Below, piece by piece: positions 1 to 26,562 of a stretch of DNA of 28,578 nt (the stretch's first letter is position 1; each line of letters opens with the position of its first letter). The position numbers were made by a program, and so were the translations under genes. The stretch is from Dimargaris cristalligena. Lineage: Eukaryota. The notes under the pieces were generated by a model, which ran no database searches, was not told the origin of the DNA, and worked only from the letters and a program-made list of their open reading frames with translations. The DNA lies in the NCBI GenBank assembly GCA_003614675.1, contig ML002211.1:62001-90578 (forward strand). The letters run 5' to 3'.

Positions 1-143
1 TCAATCGATTCCTTCGCCCTACTACTTGTCGGTTATCCATCCCATTCCCCCGATCCAATACCACCTATCCACAGTTGACCCCCCAACCGCGAGGTCTATT
101 GTTCATTCGCTTCTCAGGATCTCTACTGCCTCACATGTACACC

Positions 144-1592
144 ATGTCAGACGAAGGACTGCCCGAATCGAAGCGACCCAAGCTGGCTGAAGCCGAGTCT
201 GAGACTAAGGTTGACCAAAGCAAGACCGAGACTCCAGCTGCTCCCGCCGTCGCTGCTGCCACGCCCGCCACTACCACTCAGGCCCCTCCCCCCAAGAAAG
301 ACAACCGTCCCCAATATGGCCGTAAAGGATACGCTAAACCCGTGGTGAGAGTACCCATTCCTCCCAAGGCGACCGCTGCCGGCGGCGAGAATGGCCAAAC
401 GGAAGTGACCGAAGAAGGGGGGGAAGGTCCCTCCGGCAAACGGTTACCCAAACGACGGGTGGCTCTTCTGATGGGATTCTGTGGTACGGGCTACCACGGT
501 ATGCAAGTCAACCCGGGCGCCAAGACCATCGAAAGTGAACTCTTCGGGGCGCTGGTGAAGGCCGGGGCCGTGTCATCCGACAATGCGGATAACATCCAGA
601 AGATCGGGTTCGGCCGGGCCGCCCGGACCGACAAGGGGGTCCACGCGGCGGGCCAGGTCGTTTCGTTCAAGATGATCATCGAGGACCCGGAAATTGTGGC
701 CAAAATCAACGAAGCCCTACCCCCGGCCATTCGCGTTTGGGGATTTGTGCGGACGCCCAACTCGTTCAACGCCAAAAACCTCTGCGGCTCCCGCATCTAC
801 GAATACCTGCTACCCACCCATGTGTTCCTGCCGCCCCGGCCTAAACCGGACCAGGTGCCCGATATCAAAGAGGCCGGGCCTTTACGCAGTTCGCCCGCCG
901 ATATGGCCCAACGCCGGGCTTACCGGATCGACACCGCCACGCTGACTTCGGTCCGGGAGGCCCTGCAGCAGTACGTGGGTACCCACAACTACTACAATTT
1001 CACCATCCAGAAGAAATTCAACGACCCCAGCGCCAAACGCGTCATCAAGTCGTTCGAATGCAGCGAACCCATGCTCCTCGCCGATGATACCGAATGGGTG
1101 AGTCTGAAAATTCACGGGCAGTCCTTCATGATGCACCAAATCCGGAAAATGGTAGCCCTGGTGATTCTCCTCGTTCGTTCGTCCCTACCCCTCGATTTGA
1201 TCCGCCGCTGCATGACCGCCGACCGGGTCAATATCCCCAAAGCCCCCAGTCTGGGCCTGCTATTGGACCAGGTCGTGTACGACGGCTTCAATAAACGGGC
1301 GGCCACCGAAGACCGACCCGTCATTAAATTCGACCCTTATCTCGCTGAGATTGAGGCGTTTAAGCGCCAGTACATCTACGAACCCCTGGTCCAGGAGGAA
1401 CTGCGCGACGATGTGTTTGATTCGTGGCTGTTGTTTTACGAGGCGTTCCCCGAATTCTTCCCATTCCTAAGTTCCGGAGGTACGGTTGTGGGCGAAGACA
1501 TGAAGCCCCGGTTCGCTCCGTCGGTAGAGGCCGCCGTGGCCGCAGGAATGGTGGCCGGTAATGGGTCGGACGCGGAAGCCGGGGATGATTAG
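144..1592 (+). CDS. PUS1: tRNA pseudouridine synthase, TruA family, Pus1-like (intronless)
   Basis: TruA motifs GFCGTGYHGMQ, catalytic AARTDKGVHA, Y-x-GTHNYYNFT, GQSFMMHQIRKMV and PKAPSLGLLL, all typical of eukaryotic Pus1. The ORF-track start at 75 is a TTG; ATG at 144 (accATGt context) is preferred, and ATG 135 is in frame as an alternative. Confidence 0.95.
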   Translation: MSDEGLPESKRPKLAEAESETKVDQSKTETPAAPAVAAATPATTTQAPPPKKDNRPQYGRKGYAKPVVRVPIPPKATAAGGENGQTEVTEEGGEGPSGKRLPKRRVALLMGFCGTGYHGMQVNPGAKTIESELFGALVKAGAVSSDNADNIQKIGFGRAARTDKGVHAAGQVVSFKMIIEDPEIVAKINEALPPAIRVWGFVRTPNSFNAKNLCGSRIYEYLLPTHVFLPPRPKPDQVPDIKEAGPLRSSPADMAQRRAYRIDTATLTSVREALQQYVGTHNYYNFTIQKKFNDPSAKRVIKSFECSEPMLLADDTEWVSLKIHGQSFMMHQIRKMVALVILLVRSSLPLDLIRRCMTADRVNIPKAPSLGLLLDQVVYDGFNKRAATEDRPVIKFDPYLAEIEAFKRQYIYEPLVQEELRDDVFDSWLLFYEAFPEFFPFLSSGGTVVGEDMKPRFAPSVEAAVAAGMVAGNGSDAEAGDD

Positions 1593-4483: not shown

Positions 4484-7400
4484 TTAATAGTTGGGGTCGC
4501 GACCACCCATGGGGCGCTGGCGGCTGGGGTCCTGGTAGGTAGGGGGTTGCTGAGCGGGGTAGCCCTGGGCGCCACCATAGGCATCCTGGTAAGGAGCCTG
4601 CTGGCTGGGATCAAGCGAGGGGAACCCACTGTTCTGGTTCATGAAATAGCTGGCGTCCATGGCACCTCCCTGGTGGGCCTGTTGCATGTGCGGGTGGCCC
4701 GGGTACATGGAGGGCGGGTTGCTATTATGGTTGCCACCACCCAGATGGGACGAGGATCCCTCATCGTAGGCATTGAGGTAATTGTAGGTGCTGGGGTCGT
4801 AGTCCATGGTGGTAGGGGCCTGGTTCAGCAACTTGGCGGTGTCGGCATCGTCGTAGAGGGGGCCGTTGGCGCTCATGGTACTATAGTTTTCGGAACCCAC
4901 AGTGGAGGAGTTGGTCTCATCCTGGCGGCGACGTTCCTTACGCTTGATGGAACGCAGGCGACGGCGTTCGTAGTCTTCCCAGCGGCGCAGAGGCACCTTG
5001 GAGCCGTCGAATTCACCTTCCTTCTTGCTATGGTCATCGCCCTTGGCTTCGCCATCAACCTTACGGGTTTCACCCCAGGAGAAATCGTCAAAGTGCCAGT
5101 AGGCGTACACGGGCAGGATGAAATTCCAGACGGGCAAGGCCAGCAGGTAGACAAACATCCAGGCCAAGTAGATCCACTTGCGGGTGGTGATGAGAATCAG
5201 GATACCGGGCAGGAACAGCACGGCGAACAGCATGATCAGGGGCAGGTAGCTAGCGAACGAGTCGTAGGCGGTACGGAACAACTGGACCAGCAGGACGAAG
5301 GTCATGGCAATAGCAACGGGAAGCACCACGGTACCGGTCAGATCCAGGAACACAACGAACTGCATAGAAAAGCAGAAAGTACCGCACAGATTGCGCACCA
5401 GCACGAGTTCCATCAGATTGTGGATAGTGGAGTTAATCCAACGACGGCGCTGGGAAAGGAGCACCTTGAATTCATCCGGGACCACCGTCTTACACACAGC
5501 CTGGGGCATGAACATCATCTTACGGTGGGGGAAGTTACGCAGCATGAGGGTAGTCAGGAAACGATCCTCACCGAGAAGTAGCAAGTTCTTTTCGTGCAGA
5601 GTGTGGACGACGTTCTGGGAGTATTCCTGGATGATCTCGGGCTTGGTGATGATGGGAACCCAGTCGCTCTCACCCTTTGGCGCCTTCAGACGGTACATGC
5701 AGAAACAGCCAGGCAGACAGGTCACACCACCGAACACCGATTCGAAGGCCTTACCCAGGTGATGGGAGATGTAGTATTCGTAGACCTGGATCCAGGTCAC
5801 CCAGGACTCACGCTTGTTGGCGATCTTGGTCTCACCGCACAAACCCATAATCAGGGGGTCGTTGTTCATGCAGTTCACCAGTAGACGGAGCGAGTCGGGA
5901 TACACCTTGGTATCGGCATCCACCATAAGTACGATTTCGAACAGGTCGGGGGTAACGCCCATAAGGTGGTGGACCTTGCGGAACAAGTCGTAGTCCAGGG
6001 GAGTCATGCGGTCGTTGTAGATGACGCGGCTGAAGAAGTTCATCAGGATAATCTGCGAGTCACGCTTACCACGGTTACCGGCCTTGGGCTTGTCCTGTTC
6101 GGCGGGACCACCGCACTTGACGACAACAACGGTGGGAATGCGACGGTTCTTGTACGGATAGTGACCGGCGTAGACCTTGGCCATGTTCAGCTGCTTGCCA
6201 CCATCAGCGATGGCAATGTAGCTGCAGGGTTGGGGGTCAGCGAACAAGGGGTCCACTTCGATCAAATCCACACAAATCTCAGGGGTGCTGCGGTCGTTGC
6301 CACTACCGGTAATCATACCGTCGGCGATGATGAACAACAGCTTACGAGAGTCACTATAGTCAGTAGAAGCCAGAGACTCGACGGTGGTGCGAATAGAGTC
6401 CTCACCCTCAGAGTAACAGGTAACGAGGAGCAACGTAAACAATTCATCGCTGGCGGCGTCGCTCTGGATGATAGCACCGGAAGTGGTGTTGTTCTTCTTG
6501 GCCCAGGGAGTGGAGCTCGAAGCCATGATGGGCTTGGCGCCGGTCTTACGGCGAACCAGCTGGAAGGAGAGGATCCAGGAGAAGGTCAGGGCCATAAAGA
6601 ATTTGATTAAAACCAGACCCAGAATAACCACCAGGGCGACGTAGTTGAAAAGATTGACGGCGAAACAACCCATAGTGGACTTGGCCAGCTTGCCAGCGAA
6701 ATACTTTTGAGTGAGACAGGGGATGAGGGCCTTAAGGCTATCGGTTCGGTAAAAGAGTAGGGTGGCATCAAAGTGGTCGTACTCGGCAGCGATACGGATG
6801 GCCTGGTCCACGGGGTCGTCGGTGATGGGGTTGGTGGTGATGTTGAGGTAGGGAGTCAGATTAAGGACGTTACCATCAACCACAAACGAGCCCTTCGAGA
6901 CGTTGTCCCACCCCCAACCGATGAGGCGGACCTCGTCCTTGATCCAGCCTTGGGCGATAGCGTCGGTGATGGTTGGGAAAGGACACCCGCCAAGGCCGTT
7001 GTTAGCGTCACAGGTATCCAGACGGACAGCAGCATACTTCTGTTCAAAGCTCTGACAGTCGGTGGGCTGGACGCGAACGAACAAATTGGTAAGGTCCTCA
7101 CCGGCCGTGGGCTTGGGGTCCCTGGGGTAGTTTTCAGGCGTGATGGTATAAGCACGACCCAGATAGTTGACAGTGTTGGTCATACCGGGGCTGATTTCGA
7201 GGACGTTGTCCTGAACTTGAACGTCGGTTGAGCGGCAGAAGGTGGTGGTGAAGAATAGGGTGAGGTAGACGACGGCGGCACAGATGAGACAGATGATGAA
7301 GCACAGGGCGAACTTCTCCCGCCAGGCCTGCTGCATAGACTTGTCGCCCATACCGAGTTTGGCCAAGATAAAGCCGGGGCACCAGAAGGAGACGACTTTG

Positions 7401-7552
7401 GCGAAGATGGGCCAAACTCCGCCGGACTTTTCGCCGTGACCAGTGACCATACGGTCGGGAGCCTGCTGGCGCTCGGGACGGATGAGGGTTTTGCCTCGGC
7501 GGAGAGTGCCACCGCGGGCACCCTGGCCGCCTTCTAGGTTAGGATTGTACAT
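4484..7552 (-). CDS. CHS3: Chitin synthase, division 2 / class IV (Chs3-like), 1022 aa, intronless
   Basis: GT2 chitin synthase motifs VTCYSEG, GNRGKRDSQ, LMVDADT, CLPGCF, GEDRFLT, QRRRWINST and WHFDDFSWGETR. N-terminal RRGKTLIRPER, QQAWREK plus a TM helix, and a cytochrome-b5-like segment (VVDGNVLNLTPY). No myosin motor domain. Confidence 0.93.
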   Translation of the reverse strand: MYNPNLEGGQGARGGTLRRGKTLIRPERQQAPDRMVTGHGEKSGGVWPIFAKVVSFWCPGFILAKLGMGDKSMQQAWREKFALCFIICLICAAVVYLTLFFTTTFCRSTDVQVQDNVLEISPGMTNTVNYLGRAYTITPENYPRDPKPTAGEDLTNLFVRVQPTDCQSFEQKYAAVRLDTCDANNGLGGCPFPTITDAIAQGWIKDEVRLIGWGWDNVSKGSFVVDGNVLNLTPYLNITTNPITDDPVDQAIRIAAEYDHFDATLLFYRTDSLKALIPCLTQKYFAGKLAKSTMGCFAVNLFNYVALVVILGLVLIKFFMALTFSWILSFQLVRRKTGAKPIMASSSTPWAKKNNTTSGAIIQSDAASDELFTLLLVTCYSEGEDSIRTTVESLASTDYSDSRKLLFIIADGMITGSGNDRSTPEICVDLIEVDPLFADPQPCSYIAIADGGKQLNMAKVYAGHYPYKNRRIPTVVVVKCGGPAEQDKPKAGNRGKRDSQIILMNFFSRVIYNDRMTPLDYDLFRKVHHLMGVTPDLFEIVLMVDADTKVYPDSLRLLVNCMNNDPLIMGLCGETKIANKRESWVTWIQVYEYYISHHLGKAFESVFGGVTCLPGCFCMYRLKAPKGESDWVPIITKPEIIQEYSQNVVHTLHEKNLLLLGEDRFLTTLMLRNFPHRKMMFMPQAVCKTVVPDEFKVLLSQRRRWINSTIHNLMELVLVRNLCGTFCFSMQFVVFLDLTGTVVLPVAIAMTFVLLVQLFRTAYDSFASYLPLIMLFAVLFLPGILILITTRKWIYLAWMFVYLLALPVWNFILPVYAYWHFDDFSWGETRKVDGEAKGDDHSKKEGEFDGSKVPLRRWEDYERRRLRSIKRKERRRQDETNSSTVGSENYSTMSANGPLYDDADTAKLLNQAPTTMDYDPSTYNYLNAYDEGSSSHLGGGNHNSNPPSMYPGHPHMQQAHQGGAMDASYFMNQNSGFPSLDPSQQAPYQDAYGGAQGYPAQQPPTYQDPSRQRPMGGRDPNY

Positions 7553-8140
7553 GGTAGGGTTCGCTAAAGGAGCGGTGGGAAAGATATAAAAAAAACCTAA
7601 ACGGATGAAGGGGTTGGGGAAGGGGAAAGGGTGGCTGCAAGCTATAGGAAGCGGCAGAACAAAAATAGAAGCAAGGTCGAAAGGCTGGGAAAGACCAAAA
7701 CAAAGACCAGGCGCCGGTGGATATAAAGAAGAGCAGGCTGGTTATTCAAAAAAGAAGAAGGCAAGAACCAACCGAGCGGACTCTGAAACAGCAATGAGGT
7801 CAAGACAGAGGAGACAGCGTAGCGTAGCGCAAAGAGAAGAGGATAGAAGAAAGAAAAGGGAGGAAAATTAGCGGGAGATAAAGGGGTTAGAGGAAAGAAG
7901 GGCTAACTGGCATTCCAAGACTGAAATACAGCAACCAGGGCAAGTGGTACAGAGTTAACGGAAGGAAGAGGCCGACTCGACAATAGAAATGGCTCACACA
8001 AGGGGAAACCAACCGAGGATAAGAGTGGGAAAGGGGACGAAAAGGAATGTTTGGATTGCGAAATGAAAATGAGTGTGAATGTGGTCGAGTGGGTGTGCGA
8101 AGAGTAAGTGGCCACTGAAGGGGTGGGCGACCGCCTCAGC

Positions 8141-8147: not shown

Positions 8148-11100
8148 TCTCCGCTGGTGCCGGAGGGACCCGGTCGGAGAGCCGGGAACCCCTGCACTCC
8201 CCCCCCTCCCTCCCTTCTTCCTTAGCATTTCATCTGTATCAAACAGCCCAAGGAAAGGGGATGAGAACAAGTGCTATTGTTGCCCATCGAACTATATATC
8301 CAGAACAAAAGGCCGGTTCCCGGCCGTGTACTTGACATTGTATGCGCCGAAGTTGATTGTTAGGTTTTATAGCCCTGTCCACTCCCCCTCCCTCCCTCCT
8401 TCAACTTTACACCATGCCATTCCAGACCAGACCAGCCATCTATCCACTAGGGGGGTGGGGACCAGGGGGGTGGTGGGCGCATACAGCCTGTATGCTAGTG
8501 GGCCCCGCGTCCTATTATCCCCCATCAATCTTACTCGCATACACTCGGACTGTATTGCTCTACATTATTCTATTGGTGGCCCTCTAACCATCCCAGCCGC
8601 TGGCGGCAGTAGGGAAAGGCGAACCGGAACGAGAGTGGCCACATCTTGAGTAAAATAAATAGTATATTCTCCCTTCTTAACTCACCTCAACTCCCCTTCC
8701 TCTTTCTCATCCCAATTATAGCCGCTGTTGCCACCTCAGATGATGGATTAGTTGCACAATACACACCCTCTAAAAGCCATTGTTCATGCATCGTTACTCC
8801 GCTGGATAATTGTTGAGGATCTGTGCGCGGAGTTGGAATCGCGACAACTCCGCTTCCCACTCGATAACTCGGCGACGCGTCCTAGCTAAGTCACTGTCCA
8901 GAATACGGATACTTCCTCCAGTCCCATGCGTCCATGTACTTCCGGAATACCTGACCGCCGGTATTATTGCGGCTGGGCAGGGTGTCCGAAAATGAACCTC
9001 TACAGTCAGCTGCACCCACATGTCGAACATTCCTGCATAGTATGCACCTCCTATTAATGAATCCAGCCTAAAATGGGCCATTCCAAGAAATTCCCCGTGG
9101 CTTCCCTTAGCTGGCTTAGTGATGCTATAATCATCTTATATTTGCCCCGAATTTTAAAAAACTTAGGTTTAGCGTCGATTTTCACACCACTAACCTCCTG
9201 CAGCCATTTTATGCGCTGGTATCCCCCTATGCACTACACCAATTTCGCTGACATATTCCGCGTTTCGCCTAATTACTGGAAATGCACCGCATAAAGACGA
9301 TCTGGCATTGAGGGGGAGATGTCTTTGGCCAGTGGTTTTCTTGAAGTAATGCTATGGGTAAAAGAACCATCACTAACCTTATCCGCGATGGCTAGTGTCC
9401 AATCATCTCGGTAGTCGTGAATCCTGCTGTAGCTACCCCTCTTACTTAATAGATCCCTCAGCTTTATATGATTACATAGGTGTTGTTGACCCCTTCCCTC
9501 ACCTCCACTTAAATGGCATTTGTTTAATAGCTGATCCCCTTCAAACCAACCGCATATTCGGAGTGGAGCCGGCCTATCGGCTACATATACTCGGGGCTGT
9601 CTTATATTCCAAGGTAGGCCCAGAATATTAGGCATATAACCAAGGATATTATAGTACATCAGCAGCATAAAAAAACTGTCCACCAGAAGTGGATAATGAT
9701 GGCAATGGTGGATACTTTTCTTTCCCCATCCAGTCCTCAGCCAATTCTCAATTTTTATTGGCCAATTGGACGAAAGGCGTAGAAGGATTGCTTACCAATA
9801 ACAGAGTGATTGACACCCCGCCATTCCAATAAGACACTGCATCGGTTTTTTTTCTCTAAGCAGGCCATTGGGTAGCCAGTTCGCCCAGCACTCACCAGTT
9901 ACAATGACCGCTTACTTTCTTTCGTATTCATTCCATGGTTGTTCTTAATTTCCATTGACAAAGGTGATGTCCCCTATTAAGCGCGTATCTTGTTACACGT
10001 AGGCCGGGTGGGACTAGCATGTAGAGTATACGGAATAACATATTTTGGTATGTTGGTTTATAAAGACATGGATAACCCTGGGCGACGTGTGCCATTTCTT
10101 CGTTTTGCCCCGCATTGATCCATTTAGTCGACCAAACTAGTAACTACTCAGCACCTGCCCACTTAATGAAATTATATTCCAAGTGCCTAGCTGCTGTAAT
10201 ATTACTAGACATTTCAGTACGGTTCCTACCTGTTGGCGTAGCTCTTGCCATACAATTCCATTAAGCGGGTCATACAACATACACGCTGTTCAGACAACCA
10301 GTTTCTTCCCTCTGGTTTTATCACTAGCATTATATTGAGAAATTGAGCTTACTCATTCCATTGGCCCCATTGTCTAGATTCCAACAAATTCTTCGATCAT
10401 ATATTTCTTTACTATCATGCGCGTACCCTTAATTAGTTTGCCACTTAATAACGTGATGTACCCATTATCCCTTCAAACAATCGGGAACTACTTATACACT
10501 TACATAAGCATCAACGCTTTTCCAAGGCATTATTGTTCTCCAATCGAGCCCTCTGGATCACAACTATCCCGTTAGTCACGCTTATTAAAACGCCGCCGGT
10601 TATTGTGCCATTCGGTATAGCACAATGTTCCTTTGGAACCTTTATTGGTTTGACAATACGAATTATCCTGCACCCTTCATCTCTCACTAGCACCCTCTCT
10701 TGCTGAGTAACACCTTACCACAGTTTATATATACTACTTCGTAACTGCCCATATGCTATCATCAGGGCCAGATAGAGGATGCCTTGCGTGACTTTAATAC
10801 ATACATATATGTATTATTTTTTCTTTTTTTTTCATTGCATTACTGTGGTACCCAAAACATCGCAGGCGCGCTACGGTCACTCAAAGCGCTCCAGAATGCT
10901 TTGGCCCCATTTCCTCTTTGGCCAAGCAGGTCTAATTCAACTTAAGCAGACTTAGAGATGCCCTGGCTTAGCACATGGCCATTTTACCGCTTTGTTGTCG
11001 AATTCATTCCCATGTGCCCATCTACTTGATCAGCCTCAATAGCTATAACACAGCCATTCGTATCCAGTTTTTATTAATCCCTCTCGCTACTGACAAACTT

Positions 11101-12282: not shown

Positions 12283-15070
12283 ATGCACAGCTACAAAATT
12301 ATTACCTTTAAGTTGGCTGTACCGGCCCAGGCTAAGCCTTCCCGAGTGGTCAAGAAGACTCAGTTCAAACGGCGGGCTTGCGACCGGTGCGTCGCTCGTA
12401 AAACAGGGTGTGACGGTGAACTGCCCTGCCTTAAATGCCGCTCAGCTGGTGCCAACAACTGTCACTATAGTAAAATCAGCCGACAACCTCCAAGGCGCCA
12501 CAATAAAACCACAACCACCTCTCCGACTTCGACTAATTCCCCACCTCTGCTACCCGCCAGTCCCCCGGGGCTGCTAACCATATCAACTACCCCTGATACG
12601 TGGCCGATTTCACAAGCCAATCCCCTCGTCCAGCCGCGTCTGCCACCCATTTGTACTCCAAGAGATTCCGCCACTATATACACAGGCCCTACCGGTAGCA
12701 CCGGCGTTGTAATTTCCGACCAGGGCCTCAGAGATGGCCAGACCATTTACCAGTCCAGTGCATATGATTTGCCTTCCATTGCCCAAAGTCTGCCGACCCC
12801 TCCTACCCTGGTCGACTGGTTCCAATTTGACGGCTCGGCCCCGTCCGTCGATGGACTACCATCCAAAGCGGCCCCTTTAGTGCCCATCAGTGAGCGACTT
12901 AAATCCCTTACTCAGTCTCTTCGGGGCCCCGAGGGGCCTAGCGGTAATAGCAACCGCCTCCCCAACCGGAGAGGACCGCCCCCACGCTTAGTCTCAAATA
13001 CTATCACTCAGCATCTATCCTCCCCCCCATTCAGTTGTATATCCACCACGGGCCACCCATCATCGCCGCTGGGCGTATCGGGCAACTCTTCCTTTGCGTC
13101 GTCGATGTCATCACCACATCTGTCATTTACTGTGTCTCACTCCGTAGGGCCCTATACATCCCCTTCGTCGGTCAATTTTTTAGACATGAGCAACTTGGAC
13201 CTCATCACCAAAGAACTATACAACGAGCAGTTTGCCCTCCAAATTGGCCGTCTGAACCAACTCACTCGTCCCCTCAAATCCCAGGAGGACACTCTTTACG
13301 CACCGGGTCTCACGCGAACACTAGTTGCCATATTCGTGCTCAATCATGCACGTAATTTTACCCGTCCTTATCTAGATCGCCTGATTCGAAAACTAGACCG
13401 CCAAGAATTAACCCCTTTGGCCCTCAACTACCTGTTAGGATTTGCTATTGGTGTGCTGCCCCATGGTTCGCTGTCCCCCATTGCTCGCCGTAACATTACC
13501 ACCGCCTACTTGGAGCGAATTTACTACCTGGCCATGGGCCAGTTTGAAGGCGATGCGGCACTTGACACGCCCTACATTTTGTATTTGGCCTCTCGGCTCC
13601 ATGTGTTCAGTAAAACCAGCGATAAATACTCCTTCTTCGTCGGTAGGTACCATTGGCTCGTTGTTTGAACATAGATTTCAACCCAGTGTATTTATCCCCG
13701 TTATTCTATGTAGTTCAGTTTAGGGAAGGCTATTTTAGTATACCTATGTATCCGCTGCCCATCAGCCATGCGAACTATTCGCAAGTAGATTAAATTGTCT
13801 AATGGTGTTTGACCCCCCCTCCGCCATACCTATTGTATATACTCCAATCACCTGCTAAACTTTTGAATTCGATTTTAAGCGCTTGGTATTAGGTAAGGTC
13901 AGCCCCCCCACCTCCCTCCCTTCTTCCATGGGTTAAGCCTTATTATTAATTTTTTGCGCATCTATGAGCAATTTCAATACTGCCTCAATTTTGGTGGCGT
14001 TTCCCTGTCCATATGGTAGCTCCAACCATCCACCTGTTACTTATAGAACGCGCCGTTTTCATTGCACTTGTTATATTAGAATGATAACCCAGATGCGTTA
14101 CCACATCGTCGATCTACCCACCCAAATTACTTATGGCCCTGAGACACTTGTGGCTGTTCTGCGTAAAGAATACAAACGTCGTATATTCTGGGAGATCACC
14201 GCCTTGGATAGCCTAATCTGTTGCTTTTTGGGAATCCCGGGAAATTTTCGGGAAGAAAATATTTGCGTTGATCCCATTGATGACCGACTTCTTGGTCATT
14301 TATTGCAGCTAGCTCCGGATGACGACGTCTTTCCAGCCATTATTCCGGCCCTTGGGACTACGGTTTGCGGTAACCCGGTACTTATCCGACTTACCCATCT
14401 AGTATACAAGGCCAGTAATTTGCGAGCCAAAATCCTACCCCCCAATAGTGTCTCGGATTTCCGGCCCTACTACGAACTTAATGCCCATCTTCAGACTGTC
14501 CACCGGGAGTTGTTACAAATGTTCCCATTACCCCGATCTAACAAAATACCCAGCCATTTGACGGCTGCTCAGATGCTGCAATTCACCGGACTCGGTATGA
14601 TCCATTCCGCCTTTACCTCGGTAGTTCTTTTACTGAATACGCACAACTGGTCGTTTGGGGCCAGGGCCATCCGCCCCGAGACCGACCCTTTTCTGCATCA
14701 AATGGGTCTACGCGCGGCCCTCCAATTTACAGATTATTGTCTACCATTCTTGAGGCATCTACCGCCGCAGCGCCACCATTTGTGTGCCAGTAACTGTTGT
14801 TTCCTGGCGGCCTATCGACTTGCTATTTATTTAGGGCAGCTTAAAGAAACTATGGCTGTTGCTCCCGAGACTCCCCTAATATTTAACCAAACGCTAGATA
14901 CGATCCGGACATATATTACATATTTGGACGAATACCGGGCCTATGTCACTTACGTGGATTCCTACCAAGCCTTGCTGCAGCAGCAGCTCTATGATGTGGG
15001 GGTTGATGTAAATGTGGCCCGAATCGAGAGTACCCGCCACACCGGTAACCAGGTAGTTGAACCAGTTTAA
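12283..15070 (+). CDS. Zn(II)2Cys6 transcription factor with fungal-specific TF (middle homology-like) region, paralog 1; exons 12283-13642, 13880-13892, 14080-15070 (787 aa)
   Basis: RRACDRCVARKTGCDGELPCLKCRSAGANNC (C-x2-C-x6-C-x5-C-x2-C-x7-C) and downstream YH-x-VD...EYKRRIFW...D motifs. Donors GTAGGT (13643) and GTAAGG (13893); acceptors AAG (13879) and TAG (14079). Exon lengths sum to 2364 nt, in frame. Confidence 0.88.
13880..13892 (+). other. 13-nt coding micro-exon of TF paralog 1 (CGCTTGGTATTAG, gives A-L-G-I-R)
   Basis: Flanked by a branch-like GCTAAAC and ttttAAG upstream and GTAAGG downstream. It reconciles the phase-1 donor with the phase-2 acceptor and is homologous to the micro-exon in paralog 2. 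Confidence 0.85.
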
Positions 15071-16866
15071 GATGGGATGCCACTCGCTGTTTGTTATATT
15101 ACTTATAAACTAATACTGTCATGGGAATTTATTCAAGGCCCTATTGTGATGTGGCCCGAGCTTCCATAATGCCATCAGATCACACGGACCATCACCGGGA
15201 GATCGGAACCGGGCCATCAATTTCGGACCTGGCTTTATCAAATTTCAACTAGTTTTATCAACGTTCTGACATGTACCGGTGGCTTCACCTGCAATCCTTG
15301 CTACGAAATAAGACCCTGTTTTAGTTATCTAAAGGTTTGCTGACCTTCTTTTTGTCATCTCACGGACATCCCAACTCGTGGGACCTTGTTTTCTGACTCT
15401 GACGGAGTGCTGACCCTACCGTTGCACATCAGCCCCACGAGCCTTTGGGTAAGCATCTTTATTGTATAATCGTCCTATTTAATTCAGTGGCTAGTAGAGT
15501 TGCCACTGATAAGGACGATCTCCCTTCCAACAATGATTACTTGTTAGGACAACAACCGGCCGAGAAGGCCTTATCAGAGGGCTAATTCCATATTGCCCAA
15601 ACCCAGCAATGAACATACACTGTTTGCCACAAAATGATACAATAGGTATGTGTTTTCCATGTGTAGGCTGTGCAGTATAATCCCCTCCTGTTTTGGATGC
15701 AAGGGGGGGTTAGCCTTCATAATGCAAATGGTCGACTTTGACTTTTAATATACACGCGCGTTTTGAATTTGCTAAGTTGGAGGAGGGGCCATGGACGCTA
15801 GCCCCTATTGTCGGCCCAATTGTAATATTTACTGGCGATTATTCCCCCTTATATTGATGGAGTAGAAAGGTCGAACTGGGCTAAAGCATCTAACAAGAAT
15901 TGGGATTGAAGACCAAGCTGGCCCCCCAAGTAACCAGCTGTATCGACACTTATAGTGCATGGTGTACCTCATTGTCACATGGATGGGCTTACGTGTTCAT
16001 TTCCTAGCTGACTAGAAGTGCGAAGGTACGAATATGCCAATTGGATCTGTGAAGGTTTCGGCCATTTTCACCTTTTCTTGAAGGATCTATTAGTCGTGTG
16101 ATTGGCGGAGGCAGCTAGAAAACAATACCCAGTTCCCTACCGATAATTCTTCAAAATATACACTACTCTATTACGAGTGTCATTCATCAACTACCCATTC
16201 GGATGGACTATGGGTTGGGAAGTGAAAAAATCATAATATGGGTCTGGGATATTTTTTGCCCTAAGATTGACCTGTAACCCTAATGTAACGACGGCTGGAG
16301 GTGTCTTAAAAAGGCAAGTAATACACAAACATACTACAACCTCTCTCTCCATGTAGCTGGGCGGGGTGTTTATCCTCAAAACCCATCGTACCTTGGCTTC
16401 TCATTCACTTGCACACCTACCGTGTGGCGCCCCTTCCAGTTGATAGTGAAGGGCAAAATAATACTTGGAAGGGTTTATATCGGCTTCCGATTTTGTATTT
16501 AAACGCACGCCTCCACGCCCCCACCCTTGGGGGAGTTGACCTCTTCGGCAGCGGGACTTCAACTTGATTTTGTCCGCCGGTTCATCGGTACTCCGTAATC
16601 TCCCACGGCGCTTGGTCCCTATAATATTCTCTCCCGAAAACGCATGTCCCTTTGTGTTCTTTCTGTAAGCAGTACCCACATTCTTGGATAATTTCCTAAT
16701 ACCTAGTTGGCTGGCCCCCTATTACATACTTACATGCCACGCCCGCCCTCAACCGTGGTTTTTTTTTCTTCCCCGAATTCCCCTTGCCAGCATACTATTT
16801 TGAAGGCGCACTGTTCTACCACTCTCCTGAACCTCCTCTGCCATACATGCCATTACTCACCCGTCC

Positions 16867-19821
16867 ATGGGCGAATATGAAATTCTGAGCTTTAAACTGG
16901 ACGTGGCGCCGGGCGGTAATGCCTACCACCAGCCTCCAACCTACCGGCGCCGGGCCTGCGACCGCTGTGTGGCCCGTAAAATCGGCTGCGACGGGAAACT
17001 GCCCTGCTCCCGTTGCCAGCGGGCTAACCACCAGACCCAGTGCCACTATAGTACTATTAGTCGTCAGCCCCCTAAGCGGCGGTCGAAGCCGAGTCAGACT
17101 CGGGGTCCACAGCATCCACCGCCCCTCCTCCATGGTCCGGAATTGGCATTACCCACCCTCCCGGATTCAGGCAGGCCTGGGTCACCACCACTACTACCAC
17201 CACAGCTGCCGCCCGGGTGTTGGCCTAGGACCCCCCTCCCCGCGCCAGTCAGTGGCACAGTGGGCTCTTCATTCGCCTTAGTGGCTGTTGCTTTGCCTGC
17301 CGCCCCCCTTTCGCCCCAGACCACTAGCTCTGGGCCAGCTAGCAGTGTACCAAGCGTGTCTCAGTCCCTCCTATCTAACCTTTCCAGCTCACCCCCTTCA
17401 CCTTCCCCAGCTCAGCTTAACTCTCGGCCCCCTTTGCCTTCATTTATTGAGGTTATTCAGCAATGTAAACCAGCCACCACTATTATTACCTCACGTCCTC
17501 CTACTGGGACAAGAGCACTAGGTTCGGTTTCCACTGACCCTTCAGCTCACCGGCCAACAACAACTGGAACTACTGTCGCATTATTTAATGTACCTCCGAC
17601 TCCACCACACCTCCCATGCCCACCCGCCGCGTCCACTCAGCAGCTCTCGCTCGACGTTCGATTACGCCACTTAATCCAGTCCTTGGATCTAACGGGACCA
17701 ACTACTATGCCGCAGGATCACAGCGATTCGATATGCCTCAATGGTATTTACTCCAATCATCATCATCATCATAGGGCGGAAGGTGGTGGTGGTGATGATG
17801 ATGATGTTGGCCAGGACCCAAAAATTCCCGCCTGGGACGATAACAACAGTCTTGGTTGGTTTAGCTATAACCCGTATGATATGACCATTGACATCCCGGC
17901 CTTCTTCGCCGGCCCGCATGGATCCCAGTTTCTGCAACGCTTCTACCAATTGGGCGGACTACTTACCCAGCGAACCCTCCAGTCCCGTGAGGAAGCCATC
18001 TACCACCCCCGGTTGGTGCACTCGCTGGTGGCCATCTACGTTGGTCAGCAGGTGCGCGTTTTCCAGCGTTTATATCTCGAACGGATTTACCGCAAAATCC
18101 GGCGGGGTGAGGTATCTGCCGCCGTCTTGAACTACCTCTTGGCCTACGGGTCGGCCGTGGTCCAATCCACCCCTAGTGCCCGGCGTGCAATATCCGCGAT
18201 ATATTTTGAGCAACTCCGTAGTACTATTCCCGGGGAAATGGCTAGACCGACTTTAGAGACCCCCTACCTGATTTACCTTATTGGTTCACTGCACGCCACA
18301 ATTAATGAAAGCGAGGGCTTTGGTTACTATATAGGTAAGTTCAAGAGCCTCCTCCTCCTCCCTTTTCTTCCCCTACCTCATTCACTGATTATCTATAATA
18401 GGTTCTATTCGCCCGCCTTAGGCGCAGGTGTGGCTTGATTACCACTTAAGGCCGGACTTCAATTTTAGCGATTGGCTCAGCAAGGGTCCAATGTCCAGCC
18501 CCGACCTGTTTCCTTCTGATTCTTAAATGATACTTATTCGCTTCCTCGTAATTACTTTCTTAAAAACCCTAAAATACCATTGGCCATCTGTGTATTGACT
18601 TATTCGACAATTAGCATTGGGCAAAAGGTATAGTCGCTATACTATTCAATCATTGCCCGGAATCCCTCCCTACCTTACTTTGTCCTTGGGAAACTTATGG
18701 CCCAATTATCTACGGCTAAACTATTCCCCCTCTCTGACATATCCTCCTAACCATTTTGTATATTTGCAAAAATTTATTTCTTCACATGCACGAATAGACT
18801 CATGCTAGAAGCAAACTACCATCTAGTCGACCTCCCGAACACCGAGACAGGCGCGGCGATAGTCCACTCCTCTGTATCATTCGACCTATATGTCGAGTTG
18901 ACTAAAGAGTACAAGCGCCGGTCCATCTGGGAGCTCGCCACCTTTGATAATCTCATTTTCTGTATGCTTGGCTCCCGCAGTTTTTTCACCGCCACCCGTA
19001 TGAAGGCCCGCCCTATCAATGACCGGCTAATACACCAGCTGTTCCAGCTGAACCCGGACCAAGACAACTTCCCGATCCTTATACCAGGTATTAGGCATAC
19101 CCTTTGCGGGTACCCCACTCTGATCGACTTGGCCCTGATTGTGGGTAAAGTGGCCGACCTGCGGGCCAGTGTCGCCGAAGCGGTGGAGGCTACTGGTGAA
19201 CCCGACCTGACCCTGTATTACCAACTTAATAATGAATTGGACCAGCTCCAGGTGCGACTCTTAGCCGAGTACCCCCTACCGGAGGACGAGCCCAGCGGTG
19301 AGTTAGTCGAACGAAACGCGGCTTACTTTAGCAGTCTGTATACCCTGCACTCGACATTCTTCTCCACCCAGATGATCCTTAATGTTTATAATTGGAATAT
19401 TTCGGCCCCAGCCAGACCCGCCAGTCAAAGCGAAACCAGGCAAACCGTAATAACCCCCTTCCGCCCCGAACAACACCCCGCATTCCGCTACCGGGGCCTC
19501 CAGGCGGCGCGATTTTTCGACCGGCAATTATACCCCATTATTCGCAAACTGCCCTTCCAGTTCCATACCAATGTGTTTAGCGGGGCGGCCTTTCTCAGTG
19601 CACTTACCTTTGCGCTCATTTTGCCCTCCGACCCCACGGTCAATATGAGGCACGTGAACCAGTGCGTTCGAGATTATCTCGACTACCTAGCGGAACTAAC
19701 GAAGTATATTTCGTACGTACAGTCCTATATTGTTCTACTCGGTCACTTGCTGACCACCCTTAATTTGCCGCCGGTGAATGACACGACCCTTCAAGTATAC
19801 CCACGGAGCCACTTCAGCTAA
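16867..19821 (+). CDS. Zn(II)2Cys6 transcription factor with fungal-specific TF region, paralog 2; exons 16867-18334, 18615-18627, 18798-19821 (834 aa)
   Basis: RRACDRCVARKIGCDGKLPCSRCQRANHQTQC, YHLVDLP and KEYKRRSIWELATFD. Donors GTAAGT (18335) and GTATAG (18628); acceptors TAG (18614) and TAG (18797). Exons sum to 2505 nt, in frame, and are collinear with paralog 1. Confidence 0.88.
17758..17806 (+). repeat. Compound coding microsatellite (CAT)5...(GGT)4(GAT)4 encoding HHHHH-RAE-GGGG-DDDD
   Basis: Read directly from the sequence inside exon 1 of TF paralog 2. Confidence 0.85.
18615..18627 (+). other. 13-nt coding micro-exon of TF paralog 2 (CATTGGGCAAAAG, gives A-L-G-K-R)
   Basis: Preceded by a branch-like TTGAC and aatTAG, followed by GTATAG. 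It restores the frame and has the same length and peptide pattern as in paralog 1. Confidence 0.85.
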
Positions 19822-21697: not shown

Positions 21698-23096
21698 ATG
21701 ATGTCATATAGTGCTTGGTGGTTGTTTGCACTGGCTGCTTCGGCGGTTTCGGCCAACGGTAAGGGTTTATATAGTTTTAATATATTGTTAGACTATTTAA
21801 TAATAAAATATCCGGTATTTAGTCCCAAGATGGAGGGGGGGGTATAGGGACTACTAGTGTGGCCAAGGCCACCTGTCAATCCCACGGCTGTAACGCCGAT
21901 GCTAGGACCCCTAACAAACTCTAACCTACCTTTTCCAGTGGGATTATGGCCATATTTATCTTTGGTGCGTGACATTAGACTGCAGTCAGGATTACGATAT
22001 CATCTCCCAGGACGGGATTAACGACATTTCCCAGTGTGCCAGGATGTCGGGGAATATCCGGGTCGCTTCGACAAACCTCACAACTCTACACCTTCCTAAC
22101 CTTACGGTCTTACGCGGCGACCTATTCATCAAGGACAACGATTACCTCAAGTCCGTTGAACTTCCCCGCCTTCTGCGTTTGAATGGGGCGTTGGCGCTAT
22201 TCAAAAACGGTGTTCTGGAAACTCTGGATACACCGGCCCTAACCTACCTCCGGTCCCTCGAGGCCGTTGACAACCCGCAGTTGAAAAACGTGGGTTTCCC
22301 CGCTGAACTCCGGGACATTGACCTGCTCCGTTTGGTGGGTAGTCGGGTGATTAAGCTGGGCGGTATTAAGCCCCAGGGCGTAGGGAGCATTGAGATTGTG
22401 GATAACCCGGAAATGGATACAATCTCCTTTAACCACCTCGTCAAGGTGCACAGCTCTCTGCGAATTGCCAACAACCACGAAACATGCAGCTTACATTTGC
22501 CCAGCCTGACTAACATCGGCCGGGGCCTGGAGCTGGCCCACCTGCGGATTGTCAAGGCGCCCCGGCTCGAATCGGTCGGAGGGGGGGTGCACGTCCACGA
22601 CAACTGGTTCGAGGAGATTGAGCTCGACGACCTGACCGAAGTAGAAGAATCGGTGCGGCTCCACAACAACTCCCAACTGCGGGTCTTCTCCTTACGGGCT
22701 TTGGAGCGGGTCGGGGGCAGTTTGGTGGTGTACAACAACACCCAGCTGGAAAGTATCGCCGACCTGGATGAACTGGAGACGGTGAACGGGGACATCAATA
22801 TTCGGGGTTCGTTCCGGACGCTGTCCATGCTCCAGTTGGAACAGACGGCCGGCCGCATCATTATCAAGAGCACGGAGCGCCTTGACTGCAAGGATATCAA
22901 GAAAAACCTGGCGATCAAACCGGCCAGTGACAAATGGGTGTGTCAGGAGGAGGTGGACCGGAATGAAGTGATTGCGTTGGCGGAGTCGGACCAAAGTGGG
23001 GGTAAAAATGGAGCCGTTCAGCCGACGCCGGGTTGGTCCATGGGTATTGCGCTGGGAGTCACGGGTCTGATGTCTATAGTCCAGTTCCTGTTTTAA
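21698..23096 (+). CDS. Ecm33/Pst1/Sps2-like GPI-anchored cell-surface protein with receptor L-domain repeats; exons 21698-21758 and 21979-23096 (392 aa)
   Basis: Exon 1 encodes the signal peptide MMSYSAWWLFALAASAVSAN. Intron GTAAGG(21759)...TAG(21978) gives an in-frame join G+AC = Asp. Repeated LPxLxxVxGxLxIxxNxxL units, N-terminal C-x17-C and C-terminal Cys pair, then a KNGA omega-site region and hydrophobic C-terminal tail. Confidence 0.88.
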
Positions 23097-24653: not shown

Positions 24654-26562
24654 ATGCCCTCTTTCATCGGTGCCATTGACCAGGGGACTACCTCCTCCCG
24701 CTTCCTCATTTTCGACAAGTCCGGTGTAGTCATCGCCTCCCACCAGCTTGAATTCCCCCAGTACTTTCCTAATGTCGGGTAAGTGGTACTATTGCTCTCG
24801 CTTATTATTAGATATCAGGGTCAGTTGCTCTCTGGTCACACTAGTCACTAAGAAGTGCTTCACTAGACTGGCCAGGAAAGGATTTTCACACTACTCAGAC
24901 TAACTGTGTTACCTTCCTTGCGCCGACCTGGTCACACGGCTAGTAGCCACAGCGGCTATTGACATGTGTGTAAAAGAAGGGTGTTCAAAATCTATTGATC
25001 TCTTTTCGTAGTCGGAAAAAGTAGTGCTGGGCCACATGTCACGTGGCTACCGAAATCGATCTTCTTGGATAACCTATGCAAGTGTATGGAGCGGCCTTAA
25101 CTAACATCTAGTTTGTTATGACTATATTGTTGCCATCGATCATTTCGCGTCATGTATATATAGCTGGGTGGAACAAAACCCCAATGAAATCCTTCAGTCC
25201 GTTACACATGCCGTCGAGAAGACTGTAGCCAAATTCGAGGCCAAGGGCCACAGCGTGGCCGATATCAAGGCCATCGGGATCACTAACCAACGTGAAACCG
25301 CCGTGGCCTGGGACCGTAAGACGGGCCAGCCGCTCTGCAATGCCATCGTGTGGAACGACACCCGTACCAAGGATGTCGTTCACGCCTTGGCCGACTCCCA
25401 TCCCTCCAAGGATGTCAACTGTATCCGTGATATCTGTGGTCTGCCCCTGACGACTTACTTCACCGGTGTCAAGCTCCGCTGGATGTTGGAGAACGTACCC
25501 GCGGTAAAGGAGGCCCAAGACGAAGGTCGCCTGATGGTCGGTACCGTCGACTCGTGGCTCATTTATAACCTGACCGGTGGGGCCACTAATGGTGGTATCC
25601 ACGTCACTGACGTGACTAACGCCAGCCGTACTATGTTGATGAACATCCGCGATCTCAAGTGGAGTGACGAACTCTGCTCGTTCTTCCAAGTATCCCGCGA
25701 GGCCTTGCCCAAGATTGCGTCTTCCTCGGAAGTCTACGGTCATGTGGCCGACGGGCCCCTCAAAGGCGTCCCTATCGCCGGCTGTCTCGGTGACCAACAG
25801 GCCGCTACCGTGGGCCAGAAGTGCTTCAGCCCCGGTGAAGCCAAGAACACCTACGGTACCGGTTGCTTTATGATCTTCAACACCGGCCATGAACTGACCT
25901 TTTCCGACAATGGCCTTCTCTCCACCGTGGCTTACCAACTGGGCCCCGATACCAAGCCCGTCTACGCCCTGGAGGGCTCCATCGCCGTGGCCGGTTCCGC
26001 CATCAAGTGGCTGCGCGATAACATGGGTTTAATTCAGGAAGCCGCCGATATCGGCCGCTATGCCTCCGAGGTCAGCAACACCGGTGGCGTGTATTTCGTC
26101 ACCGCCTTCTCGGGTTTGTTCGCCCCCTACTGGCGTGACGACGCTCGTGGCTGTTTGATTGGCCTCACCCAATACGCCAACCGTAACCACATTTGCCGGG
26201 CCACGCTGGAGGCCATTTGCTTCCAGACCCGCGCTATTTTGGATGCCATGAACGCCGACAGCAAGCAGTCCCTGAGTGTCCTCAAGGTCGACGGCGGTGT
26301 GACCAATTCCGATGTGTGCATGCAGCTCCAGGCCGACATTCTGGGCATCGAAGTCGTGCGCCCGGCTAATATCGAAACTACTGCGCTGGGCGCCGCCTTC
26401 GCCGCCGGTTTGGCCGTTAAGGAGTGGGACAGCATCGATGATATTATCGGTAGCCAGGGCGATGAGAATGTGGTCTTCAAGCCCTCGGTGGATGCCAATG
26501 ACCGGGATGGCCGCTACGCGAAGTGGAATGAAGCCATTAAGCGCAGTTACGGCTGGGCCTAA
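24654..26562 (+). CDS. GUT1: Glycerol kinase (FGGY family); exons 24654-24778 and 25164-26562 (507 aa)
   Basis: Exon 1 (absent from the ORF track) encodes [21 protein letters not shown]. Intron GTAAGT(24779)...TAG(25163) joins GG+C to give G-W-V-E. Motifs [54 protein letters not shown] and LKVDGG. Confidence 0.96.

Follow-up and report, generated by a model that had tools for sequence, protein, structure and literature searches.

A probable 13-nt coding micro-exon shared by two tandem Zn2Cys6 genes of Dimargaris cristalligena

Introduction

Does a cassette of 13 nucleotides (nt) that lies between two long exons in each of two neighbouring genes belong to their coding sequence, and if it does, is it an ordinary exon or a splice switch? 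This question is raised by a stretch of 28,578 nt (contig ML002211.1, positions 62,001 to 90,578, referred to here as the window) from Dimargaris cristalligena, a member of Kickxellomycotina that parasitises moulds. The window holds two tandem genes that encode Zn2Cys6 proteins. A first-pass annotation, made from the letters of the window, had proposed that both genes hide a frame-shifting micro-exon and that its regulated skipping could make isoforms that only bind DNA. In this work, an internal exon is called a micro-exon when its length does not exceed 30 nt. The cassette very probably represents a genuine coding micro-exon. The overall reading that we consider likely is that of an ordinary, old, and most likely constitutive micro-exon in old tandem paralogs of a small, lineage-restricted Zn2Cys6 family.

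Results

Structure of the two tandem genes

In the proposed structure, each gene is divided into three coding exons, where the 13-nt micro-exon separates a long exon 1 from a long last exon. The features of both genes are listed below.

Gene 1 exon 1, 12283-13642 (+): Zn2Cys6 domain, low-complexity linker, and first part of the helical regulatory domain; open from ATG
Gene 1 intron A, 13643-13879 (+): 237 nt, GTAGGT...TTTTAAG
Gene 1 micro-exon, 13880-13892 (+): 13 nt; encodes ALGIR with its flanking bases; AG before and GTAAGG after
Gene 1 intron B, 13893-14079 (+): 187 nt, GTAAGG...ATATTAG; contains TCCCTCCCT at 13913-13921
Gene 1 last exon, 14080-15070 (+), stop codon included: remainder of the regulatory domain
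Gene 2 exon 1, 16867-18334 (+): Zn2Cys6 domain, linker with a His/Gly/Asp run, and first part of the regulatory domain
Gene 2 intron A, 18335-18614 (+): 280 nt, GTAAGT...CAATTAG
Gene 2 micro-exon, 18615-18627 (+): 13 nt; encodes ALGKR with its flanking bases; AG before and GTATAG after
Gene 2 intron B, 18628-18797 (+): 170 nt, GTATAG...CGAATAG; contains TCCCTCCCT at 18663-18671
Gene 2 last exon, 18798-19821 (+), stop codon included: starts in phase 2 and is preceded by GAATAG

Exon 1 ends in phase 1 in both genes, with ...TTC GTC G followed by GTAGGT in gene 1 and ...ATA G followed by GTAAGT in gene 2. The last exon of gene 1 also starts in phase 2 and is preceded by TATTAG. The N-terminus encoded by exon 1 of gene 1 can be aligned with gene 2 and with the relatives described below. 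The borders of both micro-exons are canonical (AG-13 nt-GTAAGG and AG-13 nt-GTATAG) and the flanking introns are of workable length.

When the cassettes are included, both genes exhibit uninterrupted open reading frames (ORFs) of 787 amino acids (aa) in gene 1 and 834 aa in gene 2. The junction peptides are YSFFV-ALGIR-MITQMRYHIVDLP in gene 1 and FGYYI-ALGKR-LMLEANYHLVDLP in gene 2. When the cassettes are left out and the long exons are joined directly, the new frame reads E and then a stop codon in gene 1, and DSC and then a stop codon in gene 2. The phases, coordinates, cassette positions, junction peptides, and skip stops given by the first-pass annotation were all confirmed by reading the sequence and by a coordinate script.

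Conservation of the cassette between the paralogs

Frame-restoring AG-N-GT cassettes as such are common, with 38 in the gap of gene 1 and 14 in the gap of gene 2 when those that contain stop codons are counted. Only three stop-free ones are found in the gap of gene 2, which are a 1-nt cassette, the 13-nt cassette, and a 67-nt extension of the 13-nt cassette. Both gaps were shuffled, and a stop-free pair of equal length (at least 10 nt) with at least 80% identical peptides was obtained in 7 of 30000 shuffles. Such pairs appeared in 217 of 20000 shuffles when cassettes down to 4 nt were admitted.

The two micro-exons are identical at 7 of their 13 bases and at 4 of their 5 residues. The Ala, Leu, and Gly residues are encoded by different synonymous codons in the two genes. 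The flanking introns cannot be aligned between the genes (global alignment z against shuffles of 0.39 for intron A and 1.85 for intron B), as the first-pass annotation had claimed, and the words common to them are only 9-10 nt long, which is the chance level. Since the residues are kept while the codons differ and the introns cannot be aligned, the peptide of the micro-exon appears to be under selection rather than its DNA.

The corresponding segment in the relatives

The relatives were identified using a HMMER scan of 1.84 billion representative proteins with E up to 0.001, where the query was the public model of gene 1 that is labelled P0001, and the other matches are labelled in the same way. 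The family is small, with 26 proteins matched among those representatives. A five-residue segment of the form x-[L/M/I]-[G/A/S...]-x-[R/K/N/Q...] is found in 17 of the 26 matches, where it occupies the same place and leaves the spacing of the flanking blocks unchanged. Sequences of this segment include SLSNK, TLSSN, DLGKS, TLGRR, SLAHR, GLSKR, GLARQ, GLAKN, ALAMR, and GLSVR. The Tieghemiomyces parasiticus protein IWQ60_007512, to which the last exon of gene 2 is 39% identical across 93% of its length, has TKGKS at the position of the segment. The query is covered in one stretch across the junction by 12 of the 26 matches.

Seven models break exactly at the junction (P0002, P0026, P0004, P0008, P0009, P0019, and P0024). 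Both P0002 and P0026 end just beyond the junction, and the tail of P0026 starts with GKF, which is the reading of a donor of the form G/GTAAGTTY. The segment of P0004 is replaced by a 38-residue insertion that starts with CKY, which is the reading of T/GTAAGTAY. Judging by the proteins alone, the tails of P0026 and P0004 would represent read-through into an intron. Both P0008 and P0009 exhibit deletions at the junction, and both P0019 and P0024 start immediately after the segment. The breaks in P0004, P0008, P0019, P0024, and P0026 suggest that the same hard-to-predict structure may be widespread in the family. The match P0022 is repetitive and doubtful.

The public models that split the genes or start at this place (P0002, P0019, P0024, and P0026) could also be taken to indicate that the two halves are separate genes, or that the loci are decaying pseudogenes, where the cassette would be coincidental. 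However, almost half of the matches (12 of 26, as given above) run across the junction in one stretch, both halves retain intact ORFs in both paralogs, the predicted fold is one continuous helical domain across the junction, and the shuffle test produced a comparable pair in only 7 of 30000 cases. We regard this explanation as extremely unlikely.

Test of the splice models

The splice models were scored with a profile built from 17 relatives, which contained no Dimargaris sequence and no broken model. All ORF-preserving one-intron and two-intron models within 150 nt of the junctions were scored. The micro-exon model ranked first among 1466 models of gene 1 with 492.8 bits, where the runner-up scored 484.6 bits. 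The micro-exon model also ranked first among 1204 models of gene 2 with 536.5 bits, where the runner-up scored 525.8 bits. These top-ranked models and the segment of the relatives bear out the proposal that the 13-nt cassette is a coding micro-exon common to both paralogs.

The best single-intron models without the micro-exon scored 480.7 bits in gene 1 and 522.2 bits in gene 2. Both use a donor 4 nt downstream (GT at 13647 or 18339) that joins exon 1 to the last exon directly, so that the micro-exon would be unused and the proteins would be three residues shorter. Both joins are in frame and free of stop codons. However, these models fall 12.1 bits (gene 1) and 14.3 bits (gene 2) below the micro-exon models, and they disrupt the five-residue spacing that is kept in 17 of the 26 relatives. 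Their donors, GTACCA and GTTCAA, are by reading poor matches to the GTAAGT-type sites found here, and the presence of ALGxR in the correct frame in both introns is left unexplained. The use of this downstream donor in place of the micro-exon is very improbable.

A second GT lies 4 nt past the exon 1 donor in both genes (13643-13648, GTAG-GT; 18335-18340, GTAA-GT). Such a second GT is part of the normal GTRRGT donor consensus, and its occurrence here probably reflects just that consensus. It is nevertheless the one path by which the micro-exon could be left out in frame.

Position of the micro-exon peptide in the predicted fold

The Zn_clus domain (PF00172) was matched at residues 31-68 of the gene 1 protein with 26.4 bits and at residues 29-66 of the gene 2 protein with 30.5 bits (cut-off 21). 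The family profile was also searched against the PDB sequences, where it matched the DNA-binding domains of Put3, Gal4, and Hap1 (E 0.008-0.08). Only Zn-cluster DNA-binding domains were matched in that search, and none of the matches was for the regulatory domain. The fungal-specific domain PF04082 was found above its 23-bit cut-off in P0003 (26.7), P0011 (28.6), and P0017 (28.5), and below it in P0010 (20.2) and P0012 (17.7). The PF04082 envelope covers the segment in P0010, P0011, P0012, and P0017.

The AlphaFold2 (AF2) model of P0001, which was made with the family alignment, exhibits a mean predicted local distance difference test score (pLDDT) of 75.3 and a predicted template modelling score (pTM) of 0.73, and it is disordered to residue 112. 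The ALGIR peptide occupies residues 244-248 within a helix at residues 239-252 (pLDDT of the block, 93). The predicted fold is one continuous helical domain across the junction. This domain (residues ~130-557) superposes on the chains of Cep3 in the ten top rows of VIA-align, with Z of 15.8-18.2 over 335-354 residues and a root-mean-square deviation of ~4-5 Å (6.7 in one row), while the next unrelated fold has Z of 13.5. Cep3 is a kinetochore protein of the Zn2Cys6 class, and its central domain is Gal4-like. No PDB structure was matched by Foldseek at E up to 0.001, where the E-values were weak (0.016-0.26), and the relation to Cep3 emerged only from VIA-align. The AF2 helix, the Cep3 superposition, and the PF04082 envelopes indicate that the first-pass annotation was right in substance when it placed the peptide in a helix of the fungal-specific (Gal4/Cep3-like) domain.

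The micro-exon lies about 385 residues (gene 1) and 423 residues (gene 2) downstream of the Zn cluster. Exon 1 already encodes ~140 residues of the helical domain, which correspond to seven helices and half of the eighth helix, and a cut at the micro-exon falls mid-helix for this reason. The idea that skipping could make isoforms with only the DNA-binding part is thus not quite correct, since those ~140 domain residues would remain.

Regulated inclusion as an alternative

Regulated inclusion would mean that skipping of the micro-exon or retention of an intron deliberately makes a truncated DNA-binding protein, or shuts the gene off through nonsense-mediated decay. Several observations are consistent with such a switch. 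The length of the exon is not a multiple of three, leaving it out ends the protein within 1 codon in gene 1 and 3 codons in gene 2, and this structure is kept in two paralogs with no more than 34% identity over 477 residues. A stop codon within 4 codons of the skip frame is expected from 12% of the start positions in gene 1 and 18% in gene 2, and stops that early in both genes are expected in only ~2% of cases. The 9-mer TCCCTCCCT, which was chosen post hoc, is located 21 and 36 nt downstream of the micro-exon donors in introns that otherwise cannot be aligned. A precedent is also given in the available text of PMC11121469, which describes a 20-nt glucose-dependent microexon in the Zn2Cys6 gene Xlr2 of Trichoderma virens.

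However, the cut would fall halfway through a buried helix, with ~140 domain residues before it, and would leave a partly folded fragment and no clean module. The keeping of an old pair of introns requires no regulatory explanation. The Xlr2 microexon belongs to the DNA-binding domain, and the same portion of text describes the short form of Xlr2 as a separate transcript rather than a product of skipping (PMC11121469). Exon skipping is also rare in fungi, where it accounts for 3% of alternative splicing events and intron retention accounts for 61%, as far as the accessible part of PMC3925392 reports. We consider regulated inclusion to be unlikely. Quite improbable as well is the idea that the 13-nt exon has been kept as a post-transcriptional gate, where an intron would be retained or the exon skipped under some condition (for example on contact with the host mould). 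Both paralogs would then change from full activators to short DNA-binding proteins that lack the regulatory domain, or to no protein, and TCCCTCCCT would be the control site.

We also considered whether the stops that follow so soon in the skip frame are designed, and dropped this view as weak, given the joint expectation (12% x 18%).

The CT-rich word TCCCTCCCT occurs in 4 copies in the window where 0.39 are expected, and none of 100 shuffles reached 4 copies. The other two copies are at 8207-8215 and 8389-8397 in unrelated non-coding DNA. The word was picked post hoc from a blastn-short match, and it could be an intronic splicing element or CT-rich filler.

Age of the duplication and of the exon structure

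The maximum-likelihood tree was constructed from the two proteins of the window and 19 relatives. The proteins P0001, P0002, and P0009, which belong to the same genes as those of the window, and P0019, P0022, and P0024-P0026, which are fragments or doubtful, were left out of the tree. Gene 2 clusters with the T. parasiticus protein, and four other relatives form the clade to which gene 1 is joined (support 100/99 for both groupings). These groupings place the duplication before the divergence of Dimargaris and Tieghemiomyces. The exon structure also appears to be old, because it is shared by paralogs that separated before that divergence. The identical phase-1/13-nt/phase-2 structure is most simply explained as ancestral, and it was probably present in the gene before duplication.

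A probable ordinary micro-exon and its likely splicing

The reading of an ordinary and old micro-exon can be stated as follows. The micro-exon would supply five residues (A-L-G-x-R) mid-way in a buried helix of a Gal4/Cep3-like regulatory domain. The micro-exon and the positions of both flanking introns (phase 1 and phase 2) would have been inherited from the single gene that preceded the duplication. Intron definition is believed to be the main mode of splicing in fungi. Each of the GT-AG introns of 170-280 nt would then be recognised and removed independently, and the small size of the exon would be no obstacle to its inclusion in the mRNA because of this independent removal. Introns of this length with such signals can be regarded as normal here, since the glycerol kinase gene in the window has a similar 384-nt intron (GTAAGT...TATAG) with a branch region that is by reading equally loose. 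Skipping of the micro-exon, or retention of either intron, would lead to an early stop and to a protein that is cut within the helical domain. Transcripts of this kind would more likely be splicing errors than sources of a modular isoform, because the truncation falls mid-helix after ~140 domain residues, and they may be removed by nonsense-mediated decay.

Several points weigh against this reading. No RNA sequencing run was found for 12283-19821, and the protein searches gave no transcript-derived full-length protein among the matches. The Pfam search did not match PF04082 in the exon translations of the window itself or in P0001. A strict CTRAY branch motif near the 3' end is present in none of the four introns, except for TTGAC in intron A of gene 2, and in a strict YTRAY scan only 2 of the 4 introns had a motif in their last 60 nt. 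Both genes also possess an in-frame alternative without the micro-exon through the donor 4 nt downstream, which reads FFV-GR-MITQ in gene 1 and YYI-GK-LMLE in gene 2. Conservation as an exon outside the window is something that we infer from the proteins of the relatives. Constitutive use is most likely on the basis of priors and of the buried mid-helix position of the peptide.

Public models of the two genes

The GenBank model H4R33_000377 of D. cristalligena (P0001, 577 aa) is 100% identical to the last exon of gene 1 over 329 aa. This model contains ...YSFFVALGIRMITQ..., hence the micro-exon is included in it. The exon of gene 1 has thus been recovered independently by an ab initio pipeline, and the description of the micro-exon as hidden in both genes does not hold. 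P0001 also excises portions of exon 1, the Zn cluster among them. Ab initio annotation of low-coverage genomes with Funannotate/Augustus is described in the available part of PMC9866270. The H4R33 models presumably come from those genomes, where the link between the locus tag and the paper is one that we infer.

The Joint Genome Institute (JGI) model BJ085DRAFT_32913 of gene 1 (P0002, 319 aa) misses the micro-exon, and it continues after ...YSFFV into a spurious exon inside intron A and then a stop codon. The sole public model of gene 2 that was found is P0009 (622 aa), where ...GFGYYI is joined directly to VDLPNTE... and 14 residues are lost. Both models, together with the five further relatives whose models are broken here, agree with the earlier remark that gene predictors often miss such exons and split the gene, and they show that genes are clipped as well.

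Both P0001 and P0002 remove a 24-nt "intron" at 13354-13377, which changes RNFTRPYLD to H. In alignment, the removed segment has conserved counterparts in gene 2 (RVFQRLYLE) and in the relatives. This 24-nt cut looks like a prediction artefact, and so do the remaining internal cuts in exon 1, among them the one that removes the Zn cluster from P0001. The linker of gene 2 carries at 17757-17810 a His run followed by Gly and Asp runs (HHHHHRAEGGGGDDDD), and most of this linker is excised in P0009.

Neighbouring genes in the window

The other features identified in the window are listed below.

tRNA pseudouridine synthase (PF01416), 138-1589 (+)
Chitin synthase (Chitin_synth_2, 843.9 bits, with a CHS4 domain), 4487-7555 (-)
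Receptor L-domain repeat protein, 21915-23093 (+)
Glycerol kinase (FGGY_N and FGGY_C): exon 24654-24779, intron 24780-25163 (384 nt), and exon 25164-26562

The glycerol kinase intron lies after the first 42 codons, and it is the only other clear reference intron in the window. Nothing links the tRNA pseudouridine synthase, chitin synthase, and Receptor L-domain neighbours functionally to the two regulators.

Discussion

The main value of these findings lies in annotation. Correct full-length models of 787 and 834 aa are proposed for two transcription factor genes. The existing public models of these genes are a truncated one of 319 aa, a clipped one of 622 aa, and an internally damaged one of 577 aa. 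The rule of AG-13 nt-GT that encodes x-L-G/A/S-x-R/K could repair the whole small family in Kickxellomycotina. The micro-exon would add a second case of a frame-shifting microexon to the fungal Zn2Cys6 genes, and it would be the first such case from an early-diverging lineage. If its inclusion were regulated, the precedent of Xlr2 would be extended.

The findings in this work can be compared with three known systems. Gal4-type regulators (PF00172 and PF04082) share with both proteins of the window an N-terminal Zn2Cys6 cluster and a large all-helical C-terminal domain, which superposes on Cep3 here. Some relatives also reach the PF04082 cut-off, whereas the two window proteins give no match to this domain. 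Plant microexons of 15 nt or less are also conserved, needed for the frame or the domain, and routinely missed or misplaced by annotation, as described in the accessible portion of PMC8831610. The plant work rests on RNA sequencing, whereas the micro-exon reported here is known from comparison.

The literature searches on microexons in fungal Zn2Cys6 genes gave no description of this exon, and Xlr2 was the only relevant case among them. The following statements on Xlr2 are limited to what the available text of PMC11121469 contains. Both cases exhibit a very short frame-shifting internal exon in a Zn2Cys6 gene with canonical introns, where the peptide is conserved with changes at third codon positions. 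Both exons are also missed by most models and present in the annotation of one gene, which is that of one ortholog in the case of Xlr2 (PMC11121469). However, the position of the exon differs, since two cysteines of the DNA-binding domain come from the Xlr2 exon whereas the exon in this work encodes part of a helix of the regulatory domain. The Xlr2 exon is documented by RNA sequencing and by its dependence on conditions, and its short form is a separate downstream transcript that lacks the DNA-binding domain (PMC11121469). In contrast, exclusion of the micro-exon in D. cristalligena would leave the DNA-binding domain in place, and the C-terminal two thirds of the regulatory domain would be missing. 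The host of Xlr2 is an ascomycete whereas D. cristalligena is a zoopagomycete.

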